64,000 nt of DNA from Ostrea edulis (GCF_947568905.1 NC_079167.1:30938001-31002000), one strand, 5' to 3'. Positions 60,088 to 64,000 are shown, counted from the first letter of the stretch. Program-made: numbers and translations. Notes: a model not told the origin generated them from the sequence alone.

Positions 60088-60739
60088 TTATACTCTCGGA
60101 GGCATGTAAACGGCTAACGTGGCAAAGAATTGACTTCTTAATCTCAATTCCTGGGGGGTCTGAGGACTTAAATGTACCAGTAAATACCCGTGAGGAATAC
60201 GGGTGGCTTCATCATAGGTCGATAGTAAATGAGGCATTTGTAATTGCCGACTTAACACCCCGATCTGAGACTTATCTCTAGGATTTTTAAACAATACGAG
60301 ATAATGGGCATTCAGACTGATGGTCCGATGTTGCACAGCTCGATCGAAGAGATTTTGCGTGATGTAGATGACACTGGTATTGCGATGACGCGCTTTGCGC
60401 GTAAACCAATCCACAATGGATTATATGGCCTTTCCCCCCATCATATAAAAAATCAGTAAATGACGAGTGCCGAGATCGGCGACAAATTGCTCGTCGTCTG
60501 AGGGAATATCGTGAATGAATGTCACCGACTCTTGTAATGATTCGTAAGCCGGTTGCCATTCTCGGTAACACCAGACTATTTTTTTCAGGTGGGGGTGAAA
60601 TCCAATGCGTATTTTGTACCAATTGTTTCACAAATTCCGTTTTACCTGATTTGGAAGGACCTGCTACTACCATAGTAAATTCGTGTTTCAATTGAAACGG
60701 ACCTAGTGTCTTGTAGGTATACATCTTGATAAATGACAC
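60088..60739 (-). pseudogene. FtsK/A32-like genome-packaging ATPase of Maverick/adintovirus type, disrupted
   Basis: Walker A GPSKSGKT. After a frameshift at PPPEK the Walker B region reads RHLLIF-YMMG (DD lost), with a TAA at about 60421. The C-terminal half RHRNTSVIYITQNLF..RTISLNAHYLVLFKNPRDKSQI..GYLLVHL follows. Confidence 0.88.
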
Positions 60740-60818
60740 GAGTTCTAGAGTATCATAGATATTTATTTACAAGTAAAACAAAACTTCAATTTATTTACAA
60801 GTTTAAAATACAGTTTCT

Positions 60819-61331
60819 TCAACAAGTAAAAATACGTGCAGTTTCGTCCACAGATTGTCTACAAACAGGACAGTGTGCAAGTCCTGCACCACACACGGCA
60901 CAGAAACATAGATGTCCACAAGGTAAAAATGCAATTTTCAGTTCACGGTCTAAACAAATATGACATTTCTGAGTACACGCGGGATTCCCCGACTCGTCAC
61001 TGGGTAAGTCCCCCCCCCCCCTCCCCAATCTCGACCACTCTCGGTAAGTCTGGCTTTGGCGTTGAAAGCTTGTCGTACCCATTTTACACTTTTATTACAC
61101 ACCAAGTAAGCACAATGAGGACTCCAATACGCGTGTTATATCCAAGGATCGTTCCCGTTCTCCCATTCCACCATCGACATCGAAAACAACACACACAATC
61201 TTCCGTTCCTCTGTAAAAGAATCCCGCTTCAGCAATGGATGGTAATAATTTCTGTAAGACATCGGGTGCTCCTTTAACGATCGAATAATCGGGCATAACC
61301 CGGTATGATGGTATGTCGTAGTGATCCGCAT
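60819..61331 (-). pseudogene. Inhibitor of apoptosis (single BIR plus C-terminal RING), disrupted
   Basis: The BIR spans frameshifts: IAEAGFFYRGTEDCVCCFRC / EWENGNDPWI*HAYWSPHCAYLV (Cx2C..H.x6C, with TAA in place of Glu). The RING is CHICLDRELKIAFLPCGHLCFCAVCGAGLAHCPVCR. Confidence 0.9.
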
Positions 61332-61377
61332 TTACTCATGTTTGCAACTGAACTTTTCCCGTAGATGTAATTCCTTT

Positions 61378-63998
61378 TTAATACCCGTAAGGGAGGGTGT
61401 TGTAATGGTGAACCCGTTGTCTCTTGTCGTACACCACGCGGTATTTCTTTACTAAGGGGATGGTGCGAACATCGTGATGACGTGTTCTTTGAATAAAGTG
61501 GGGGTAACGCACGTTGACTTCTTCCTCCCATTTCAACATTTTTTCTAAGGTGGTGAGGGAAACGATCCTGGAAGCTCGATAATTGAGCGTCAAACCTTTG
61601 ACTTTACACATTGATTTTCCGCCCTGGGTCTCATACGCGTAATTTTTAGGTCCTCCCGACATGTATTTGACGATGTGGTCACCACCCAATTCATCGGTCC
61701 AACCTCCTAAGCTGTTGATGATGGTGGGGTTGAACCGACTCTCATCGTGTTGGTAAATGATGCTGTCGGTATCGAAGTAGAGGACGCGATCCCCCAAAGG
61801 CTCTAGAGTCTCATAGAGATGTAAACGAGCGTGTGCGGTGGTAAAACACGCTAACACCACATTGCCAAAAGAACAGTCTTCTAAAAATTCTTCTTTTTCC
61901 TGATAATTGATCAGCATCATGTCGGTTTCGGGGTGATCTCGATTTTCCAGCAGCTCGACTCCTTTGATTTCTAGAGTGGCATCTTGTAATTTTTTCTGTA
62001 ATTCTTCTTCTTCGGTTAAATACTGTGTTTGTGGTAACTGTAATCGTTGTGCAAATTTCCCCCAGAGACAATTTAAAAAGAGTTTGGCAATGGTTCTACG
62101 GACGGGTTTTTTCTGAATATCTATTAGATTCATGAAGATGCCTTCTCGGCGCTGGATCTCACTGATGTATTCTTTTTTCTGTTCGCACGTTTGACATTCA
62201 TCGGGAAATCTGGAGGCTTCTTGTTTGATCTTCAAGAAAGTGTCGATGTAAGATCGAAACAAATCCTGGCTGGTCTTTTCAAAATGCCAGACTTCGTGGA
62301 TGCACTCGAGCCGATAGCCGAGATCTAGAGCTTTGTGTACTTCTACGGTCACCCAGGTTCCGGTCAGACTGCATTCTGAATCGGTGTGACTGCATCGATC
62401 GTCGGGTCCAAAGTTGCGATAATTGGCGCAGGTTCGGCATAAGGGGAAGAGTAATTTTCCTCCTGTCTTGTAGGGTAGCACGGGATGATACAGACCTCGG
62501 GGTGGGAGGACGCGGCAACGAATGAAGCCAAAGTACTCTCTCACATCGGCGAAATCGCTGGTGATGACTTGAGGATGGTCGATGGGAAACGGTTTGTATT
62601 TCAACACGTAAGGATACAGGGAACACATATCGACGTATCGCATGTCTCCCTCCTCGCAATACAGACGCGTGGCATTGGTACGACCCCCGTATAAGGTATC
62701 ACGGGGATTTAATGGGTCCTGAATATCGAGGTCTCGTAGGAATGTTTATAACTCCGGACTGTTTTTGACTTGTCGATCAAACTCGTGTTCCCAGATGCTC
62801 ACTAACGTATATCTTTGTTGCCTTAAGGCGGCGGCTCGTTTCAAGGTCTGCTCGTACAGGGTTTGATACGTCTGCTGGACTCGCTGGGGGTGGGTTTCGG
62901 TCAACAGATTCGGATAACAGGTGGGGCACCCGTGCCATTAGCAGCCGTAAAATTCATACACAGTGCGGGATTCCTCCTCGTAACCGTCCACCGTATAGGG
63001 TCCTATGGTGATTTCGCCCCCGTTCTTAGCATGACGCATGTTGCGGTCTAAGGAGGTGAGCCAGCGACAGGCCTTGGCCGAGTAGCGGCGCGACGGTTGG
63101 TAACCCATATTGGGGATTATGGCAATGGTGTCCTGTGACATGAATCCTCGTCGATACGCTAAATTAGCCGTGCTGACAAAAGTTATTGATTCCTGAAACG
63201 GGTCGACCCGGACGAGACTGTAGAGAGTCGACTTAAATTGCGCACAACAACGGCGTAAAATATCCACATCCGAGATACAGTAAGCCAAGAATTCCTTCTG
63301 AAAATCGAACACTTTCCCGGCCTGTTGATTGTACCAAGTATAGAAGGCTGCACGATTGGCGATCGACATGTCATCAGGATTGTAGTAGTGGGCATCCGGA
63401 TAAGGACCCACGTAATTCTGGTTCTGTTCCGTGTTGAAAAAAAAGGGGGGGGATAACCTTTTTTCAGTTCTGTTAATCCAAACGCAGAGGGCATCTTGGC
63501 GAGAGCAAAGGGGAGGAAATTGTACGAATCGACGAATCTCAAGCCGAACACTCCCATGCGCAAGATTTTACTGCCGTTGAGAATGACTGCGGGTTTGATG
63601 CAGGCCGTATGCACCAGATAGTTCAGGATGAACTGCCCATCGTATCCCTTGAAATTGTGCGCAATGACGGTAGTTTCATCGTGTTTGAAAGTCACATTAC
63701 CCTTCTCGTCCGTCTCGGATTGTAATAACCACTCCATAAACTGCTTTAAAGTGTCTGGGTCTTGAAATACGAAGCGGCGTTGCGATCCAAACGCTTGACA
63801 GTGTTCACAGCGCGTGTCGATGTCTAAACTGTCGCAATGTTGACACACGCGTTCGGCCACGCAGATATTAGGGGTGTGAACTCCGTTTTCCTGTGTACAT
63901 TCAAAATCGAAATATATGTACATTTTCAATTCCTTGTTAGGTTTGGGCTTGGGTTTCTTTTGAACGAAGCAGTAATGTGGGGTAGTGACGAGTTTCTT
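61378..63998 (-). pseudogene. polB: Protein-primed family B DNA polymerase (pPolB), 5' part outside the window
   Basis: ExoI YFDFE, ExoII AHNFKGYD, ExoIII YCISDVDIL, the insert VDGY..YEFYGC*WHG..WEHEF, LYGGRT, motif A VDMCSLYP, motif B KLFLNCLWGKF, motif C YFDTDS and GPKNY. There is one frameshift at the A8G8 run (63437-63452) and in-frame TAA stops at 62938-62940 and 62746-62748. The frame is open to the window edge (HYCFVQ). Confidence 0.95.
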
Positions 63999-64000
63999 AC

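Follow-up and report, generated by a model that had tools for sequence, protein, structure and literature searches.

An Inhibitor of Apoptosis Gene as Integral Cargo of a Maverick/Adintovirus-Type Family in the Genome of Ostrea edulis

INTRODUCTION

Near the end of a 64,000-nucleotide stretch of Ostrea edulis DNA (GCF_947568905.1, NC_079167.1:30938001-31002000, hereafter "the window"), the minus strand carries a gene for a protein-primed family B DNA polymerase (pPolB; gene polB), an intronless gene for an inhibitor of apoptosis (IAP) with BIR and RING domains, and a gene for a packaging ATPase. The locus raises the question of whether such an IAP belongs to a virus-like element of the Maverick/Polinton (adintovirus) type or is a host gene that merely landed in one and, if it is viral, what it did for the virus. 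The original prediction, made from the DNA of the window, had favored a virus lineage with a captured anti-apoptotic gene as integral cargo. The gene order that it gave is borne out by Pfam matches and a Walker A motif, and the Maverick/adintovirus identity by the termini, the target-site duplication (TSD) and the integrase, capsid and protease found in relatives. The window copy itself is a dead fragment, and the interest of the locus rests on its family: more than 100 viral IAP frames that look like genes of the host, and signs that alleles were exchanged. IAP-bearing adintoviruses are a known kind of element, bivalve ones among them having already been reported in 2021, according to the accessible parts of that paper (Starrett et al., 2021; PMC8502044); its novelty is thus below what had been supposed.

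RESULTS AND DISCUSSION

The IAP Is a Fixed Gene of the Element

The genome (895 Mb, ten large scaffolds) was searched with the IAP protein, and the best 150 of 328 candidates were scored, all resulting counts being lower bounds. The matches collapse to at least 141 loci, with polB upstream and the ATPase downstream in 126, one of the two in 7 and neither in 8, the last being host-type IAPs only 33-43% identical. The presence of the whole cassette at 126 of the 141 loci rules out a chance arrangement. Recurrence of the cassette with intact frames, anticipated from the window, was found: the IAP frame is open and full-length in 109 of the 132 copies other than the window's (175-176 residues, three differing in length), and these open frames are spread over all ten large scaffolds. 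The BIR zinc ligands (C-x2-C-x16-H-x6-C; PF00653, E 2e-19) are present in 108 of the 109, a C-terminal C3HC4 RING (PF13920) in 104, and both zinc-ligand spacings are retained in 103.

At the junctions lie a constant spacer of 35-39 bp and a short AT-rich one. An AATAAA signal lies 3' of the IAP in 109/109 open copies, and between polB and the IAP in 0/77 (the copies with a placeable polB stop; 32 were left unscored). Neither a TSD nor a poly(A) tail specific to the IAP was seen in these copies, the TSD belonging to the whole element, nor does the gene group tightly with any one host IAP; these had been named beforehand as the marks of an independent retrocopy. The IAP is therefore a fixed, integral Maverick gene and not a retrocopy.

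A RefSeq protein named as a BIRC7-like host gene (XP_056015982.1, P0004) is 99% identical to the element IAP, and more than 100 apparent host IAP genes in this genome are viral cargo. The original prediction had also suggested that such elements could seed intronless IAP copies in the host: at least 109 open frames have indeed been spread by the elements themselves, but none of the 133 viral-type loci among the scored candidates is free-standing outside a Maverick. In a profile search against representatives at 50% identity, the element IAP family comes down to a single representative (P0010), the others being nameless multi-BIR proteins. The top long homologue (P0016) is a 1,558-residue multi-BIR RING protein labelled as from Candidatus Endonucleobacter bathymodioli, a bacterial symbiont of mussels.

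Copies Without the IAP

Copies lacking the IAP, which the original prediction had set against integral cargo, do exist, and eight were examined: seven short ones and one, from the ATPase search, with integrase and virion genes. The seven short copies lack most of the IAP and retain the last 53-66 bases of the gene; six of them share one deletion junction (the five of these compared are ~99% identical over 1.3 kb of polB) and the seventh has another. The copy with integrase and virion genes bears a third deletion, with ~30 IAP bases left. Because the IAP 3' tail is retained, the absence is a secondary deletion and refutes nothing: the IAP has been lost at least three times, and its loss is no bar to germ-line spread.

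The IAP-deleted short copies (L015:1529-2191, minus strand, and six others) also carry, 3' of the ATPase, a 221-residue acidic C2H2 zinc-finger open reading frame (ORF) of which none was seen in full-size copies. It is 31% like an ORF between the ATPase and the integrase of a distant Maverick family (L264), a likeness hinting at recombination between Maverick families.

Ancestry of the IAP and Selection on It

A tree of BIR plus RING was built from 148 sequences and 120 columns, 6 of 154 sequences having been dropped for a missing domain. Six element IAPs fall into a single clade with seven metagenomic relatives (FastTree support 0.997; SH-aLRT 99.9), apart from a clade of three host loci and Saccostrea IAPs; on this alignment P0003 and P0005-P0010 are grouped with the element IAPs. 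The closest non-element IAP is 47-57% identical over BIR and RING. The sister groups of the element clade, which would point to the donor of the IAP, disagree between two trees and are unreliable.

Five of 80 metagenomic IAP loci (L191, L198, L199, L241, and L248) carry distant Maverick genes (an ATPase of 33-40% identity, capsid, protease, and integrase); two of them, L198 and L241, have the ATPase two genes downstream of the IAP. The IAPs of these five loci fall elsewhere in the tree, where deep support is weak. This suggests several captures of IAPs by Mavericks, and IAP cargo seems to be widespread among them. A viral contig collection queried with the IAP gave four pattern matches, none confirmed, and a metagenome scan returned only distant IAPs among the matches listed.

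Between representatives of five IAP groups (10 pairs), the ratio of nonsynonymous to synonymous substitution (dN/dS) is 0.27-0.50, and for polB and the ATPase between backbones it is ~0.055. From these ratios the IAP is judged to be under purifying selection between lineages and to evolve faster than the core genes. Synonymous divergence reaches 1.0 for the IAP and is 0.77-1.0 for polB and the ATPase between backbones; being as deep as that of its flanking genes, it indicates that the residence of the IAP in the lineage goes back about as far as the divergence of the backbones.

Allele Exchange Between Lineages

Three IAP alleles occur on the youngest backbone, whose 75 ATPases have a mean nucleotide distance of 1.05%; divergent IAP alleles are 58-68% identical. 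At one locus (L073) the IAP is 0-1% distant from that of family B (L057), but polB and the ATPase differ by 0-2% from those of the young backbone, and the change of affinity coincides with the borders of the genes. This pattern, a foreign IAP on the young backbone, is seen at 15 loci. Alleles D and E have the same BIR and different linkers, and D and B the same linker and different BIRs. We read these mosaics as signs that IAP alleles were swapped between virus lineages through recombination. The IAP as the sole mosaic region was considered and rejected, other mosaic or divergent islands occurring along the element.

On the young backbone, allele D (35 copies) has an IAP synonymous diversity of 0.0026 and allele B (8 copies) one of 0.0066, compared with 0.032-0.037 for the genes that flank the IAP in those copies. 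For allele E (20 copies) the figures are 0.025 in the IAP and 0.039-0.044 in the flanking genes, and their intervals overlap. Two cautions apply: sorting the copies by IAP similarity pulls the estimate of IAP diversity down, and mosaic islands are also present elsewhere along the element. The pattern fits a recent spread of single IAP haplotypes across varied backbones, and selection behind that spread is suggested. We hold more tentatively, with doubt outweighing confidence, a joint proposal: that the IAP would be an arms-race locus of a recently circulating oyster DNA virus, its alleles and BIR/linker mosaics recombined between co-infecting Maverick lineages and swept across backbones, and that a real share of the "retroposed" intronless IAPs of bivalves (e.g., a hard clam clade of 42 copies) would be Maverick cargo.

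Proposed Function and Rival Explanations

By analogy with the IAPs of large DNA viruses, the IAP probably benefited the virus by preventing apoptosis of the host cell while replication was under way (a probability of roughly 0.75). The placement of AATAAA suggests that its RNA would end at a poly(A) site common with polB and be made during replication. As for baculovirus IAPs, the BIR would bind caspases or IAP antagonists, and the RING would ubiquitinate the BIR targets or stabilize a host IAP. The gene would be of use in the virus phase, for copies with deletions still increased in number in the germ line, presumably using integrase provided in trans. The BIR aligns with the solved BIRs of NAIP, ML-IAP, cIAP, and XIAP, and the structure model matches IAPs of entomopoxvirus, baculovirus and ostreid herpesvirus 1 (OsHV-1). 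The leader before the BIR is only ~17 residues long; short leaders are described as typical of viral IAPs, insect cellular IAPs having a degron-bearing leader (PMC4966970, accessible text). The full-size copies also have a PP1-binding GADD34-like gene, which is counted in favor of this reading.

Several observations weigh against an anti-apoptotic function. The dN/dS of the IAP is 5-9 times that of polB and the ATPase, which would fit relaxed constraint too; BIR surface residues vary among some alleles; the RING half of the model is of low confidence (mean pLDDT 61); and the IAP is dispensable for the spread of copies, as seen in the six short copies with one junction and the two further junctions. 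Furthermore, in two runs recorded as RNA, of which only contigs were searched, polB (185 bp) and ATPase (268 bp) were matched and no IAP. In a further run only guessed to be RNA (X2), one contig, ~7% diverged, spans the ATPase and the IAP in the same order.

Many viral IAPs have no anti-apoptotic activity, and the protein could be viral cargo acting mainly as a ubiquitin ligase against immune signaling (e.g., NF-kB or antiviral sensing), or else be an IAP that is dominant-negative or even promotes apoptosis, instead of blocking caspases. The single-BIR architecture would suit this, as would the RING being the most conserved part (dN 0.12-0.24 vs. 0.19-0.34 for the BIR between deep groups). We nevertheless regard it as unlikely, given that the BIR zinc ligands persist in all but one of the open copies and that the BIR region aligned with solved structures, which we take to be the peptide-binding groove, is conserved.

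Host benefit offers another explanation, in which integrated IAPs are kept by domestication and Mavericks are the vehicle of the host IAP expansion. The abundance of open intronless frames over all ten large scaffolds and the listing of one such protein in RefSeq as a host gene speak for it, but the fact that all 133 scored viral-type loci sit inside an element does not, and neighboring frames are open at similar rates (polB 98/132; ATPase 87/132, under a stricter motif filter), so that the open IAP frames reflect the youth of the copies, seen also in the small mean distance among the 75 ATPases. Allele D, with a nonsynonymous diversity (piN) of 0.0040 close to its synonymous diversity (piS) of 0.0026, shows no sign of host-level constraint, and older copies, the window's included, have broken IAPs; domestication is thus highly improbable. 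Least credible of all, with next to no weight, is the view that a host gene was recently retrocopied into one element and then hitch-hiked: it would account for the lack of introns, the AATAAA that follows and the eight copies without most of the gene, but it is contradicted by the missing TSD and poly(A) tail, the low identity to any non-element IAP among the scored candidates, the separate clade, the synonymous divergence close to 1 among alleles whose dN/dS stays under 0.5, and the IAP 3' end kept in the IAP-less copies. Block of apoptosis by a resident viral gene remains our preferred reading.

Relation to Known Systems and Significance

Adintoviruses are described as carrying IAP and Bcl2 homologues (Starrett et al., 2021; PMC8502044), and in the text layer of Fig. 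S2 of that paper IAP labels stand beside the Mytilus and Pinctada maps. As far as that paper was accessible, its elements share with the oyster family a pPolB, an rve integrase, an FtsK-like ATPase, an adenain-type protease, a double-jelly-roll capsid, terminal repeats and an accessory IAP in a bivalve element, and its panel B header labels, read in reverse, give the oyster gene order. Unlike the present analysis, the accessible parts contain no census of copies, no test for selection and nothing on allele exchange; the drawn maps of that paper or its Fig. S1 may place the IAP as it is placed here. The class signals differ: a PF03175 polB is the Alpha adintovirus criterion of that paper, and the gene order is like its Beta panel labels.

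Vertebrate Mavericks (Barreat and Katzourakis, 2021; PMC8097293, in part) resemble the oyster family in their (AGT)2//(ACT)2 termini, 6-bp TSD, intronless core genes, purifying selection and many degraded copies; the word "apoptosis" is absent from the main text of that paper, whereas the oyster family has an IAP, a PP1-binding gene and a probable macrodomain gene. The IAPs of large DNA viruses (entomopoxvirus MSV248, a sawfly nucleopolyhedrovirus IAP, OsHV-1 BIR proteins, and baculovirus IAP-3) share with the oyster IAP the compact BIR-RING build, the short leader and the fold (E 6e-9 to 1e-3), but top matches are only ~23-37% identical, and the oyster protein has one BIR and a 20-kb integrating carrier. 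There is no close tie to the OsHV-1 IAPs (28-33%).

IAP expansion is a much-cited stress and immune trait of bivalves, explained via tandem duplication and retroposition. Papers on the expanded families, in the parts accessible, describe dispersed intronless copies, as here, and ascribe them to retroposition (Song, 2021, PMC7831173; Witkop, 2022, PMC8917759; PMC13159474); their main texts hold no mention of "Maverick" or "Polinton". The difference is that here each dispersed short BIR-RING copy examined sits in a Maverick, and one virus-like family carries at least 109 of the open, intronless BIR-RING frames of this genome. Since viral IAP frames pass as host genes, one of them in RefSeq, IAP censuses and expression studies may be inflated or confounded. 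The hard clam paper among these three reports, in its accessible text, 42 similar intronless single-BIR genes, dispersed and mostly silent, with DNA transposons enriched near IAP genes, and a Maverick origin would be an alternative for them. No earlier report of a census of Maverick-borne IAPs, of their allele exchange or of the 99%-identical RefSeq "host" IAP was found in a literature search that covered few subscription papers. Besides, a 20-kb Maverick with an IAP, a GADD34/ICP34.5-like gene, a probable macrodomain and allele exchange supports the idea of an infectious phase of animal Mavericks in which they meet host defenses.

The Window Copy

The element had been placed at 60088..64000; the cassette does lie there, but the element is larger, running from 55,832 to 1,351 bases past the window end (length 9,520 bp). 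Its features are as follows, L001 being the sequence past the window:

55826..55831, no strand: 6-bp target-site duplication; the identical six bases follow the far terminus (L001:1352-1357)
55832..56175, no strand: terminal inverted repeat, starting AGTAGT; its partner (L001:1032-1351), just past the window, ends ACTACT
56553..57448, plus strand: inverted local duplicate of the ATPase 3' end and adjoining tandem repeats; partner at 59,296-60,185
58700..60040, no strand: tandem-repeat block with periods of 21, 42, 61, and 337 bp, at the site of the integrase and virion genes in full-size copies
60088..60724, minus strand: packaging ATPase (A32/FtsK-like), broken; Walker A motif, weak Pox_A32 match
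60762..60795, minus strand: two AATAAA hexamers 3' of the IAP stop, read from the sequence, in a short local duplication
60819..61339, minus strand: intronless single-BIR and RING IAP gene, broken (175 residues in open copies)
61378..64000, minus strand: pPolB, 3' two thirds, continuing to about L001:670

The IAP start, put at about 47 bp past the polB stop by the original prediction, is in fact 38 bp from it, and of the repeated AATAAA signals described between genes, two lie between the IAP and the ATPase and none between polB and the IAP. The IAP frame is broken about three times (near 61.28, 61.18, and 61.02 kb), which leaves the BIR (PF00653, partial, E 3e-5) and RING (PF13920, E 1e-12) pieces in different frames. 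PolB has lost ~650 bp internally, shifts frame once near 63,440, contains two in-frame stops and matches PF03175 in three pieces (E 2e-9 to 8e-31); the ATPase, which shifts frame once near 60,580 and has a single stop, is 87-96% identical in nucleotides to family copies where the full length aligned. The two terminal repeats are 85% identical over 349 columns, gaps counted, and GC content is 0.45-0.48 over the cassette against the 0.30-0.38 usual in the window. Integrase, protease and capsid genes, to be sought beyond position 64000 according to the original prediction, were found neither in the window nor in the next 20 kb; they are present in the full-size relatives. The window copy is a decayed, internally deleted Maverick, a dead fragment, and once without these genes it was unable to move alone.

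The inverted duplicate is 96% identical to its partner overall, with arms of up to 100%. Such inverted duplicates of a copy's own ATPase ends stand beside the tandem-repeat block in short copies (the window's, and L033:9663-9829), which suggests template switching in protein-primed replication. The short IAP-deleted copies have a tandem-repeat block similar to the window's. Between the inverted arms (57,630-57,900) lies a dispersed repeat of ~250 bp, 82-88% identical to the unrelated L008, L018, L020, L027, and L033.

The Maverick Family and Its Full-Size Members

A DNA search for the family gave 51 matches from the best 40 of 219 candidates. The seven full-size relatives are 20.1-21.3 kb long, with the order polB, IAP, ATPase, two basic ORFs, rve integrase with chromodomain, small ORF, putative penton, basic ORF, major capsid, protease and accessory ORFs. 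A matching 6-bp TSD occurs in 10 of 11 copies with both termini located, the window copy included; the exception (L028/L011) adjoins another polB fragment. In family copies an open pPolB frame of 1,336 residues matches PF03175 (E 3.5e-54), the integrase matches PF00665 plus a chromodomain, and an open ATPase frame from another copy matches PF04665 (E 1e-6). The major capsid has no sequence match in Pfam or PDB, but its predicted fold (pLDDT 52) matches the double-jelly-roll capsids of Sputnik, Paramecium bursaria chlorella virus 1 (PBCV-1) and mavirus (E 3e-13 to 1e-10). Directly 3' of it, in the expected place, lies the protease, a weak match (PF00770, E 0.0015; 18.7 bits, below the 21.3 cut-off), and a 329-residue ORF without a Pfam match is, by its position, a candidate single-jelly-roll minor capsid (the putative penton). 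The family is thus Maverick/Polinton of the adintovirus type. Three distant ATPases (38-43% identity) had no IAP or polB match in the flanks examined.

Full-size copies hold further accessory genes. An ORF like the PP1-binding GADD34/ICP34.5/DP71L proteins (L036:9033-9467, minus strand; PF10488, E 5e-7; PDB matches to PPP1R15B and to African swine fever virus (ASFV) DP71L) recurs in L021, L023, L028, L029, L031, L038, L040, L266, L271, and L272, and by analogy it would counter eIF2-alpha shut-off; no report of such a gene in Mavericks/Polintons was found in a limited, partial literature search. A probable macrodomain ORF 3' of the protease (L038:6995-7531, plus strand; weak PDB matches, E 2e-4 to 7e-3) is present in most full-size copies examined, and a CCHC zinc-knuckle ORF (L040:1-798, minus strand; PF00098, E 2e-15) lies near their far terminus. 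L006, counted among the 126 loci with the whole cassette, carries a second polB fragment.

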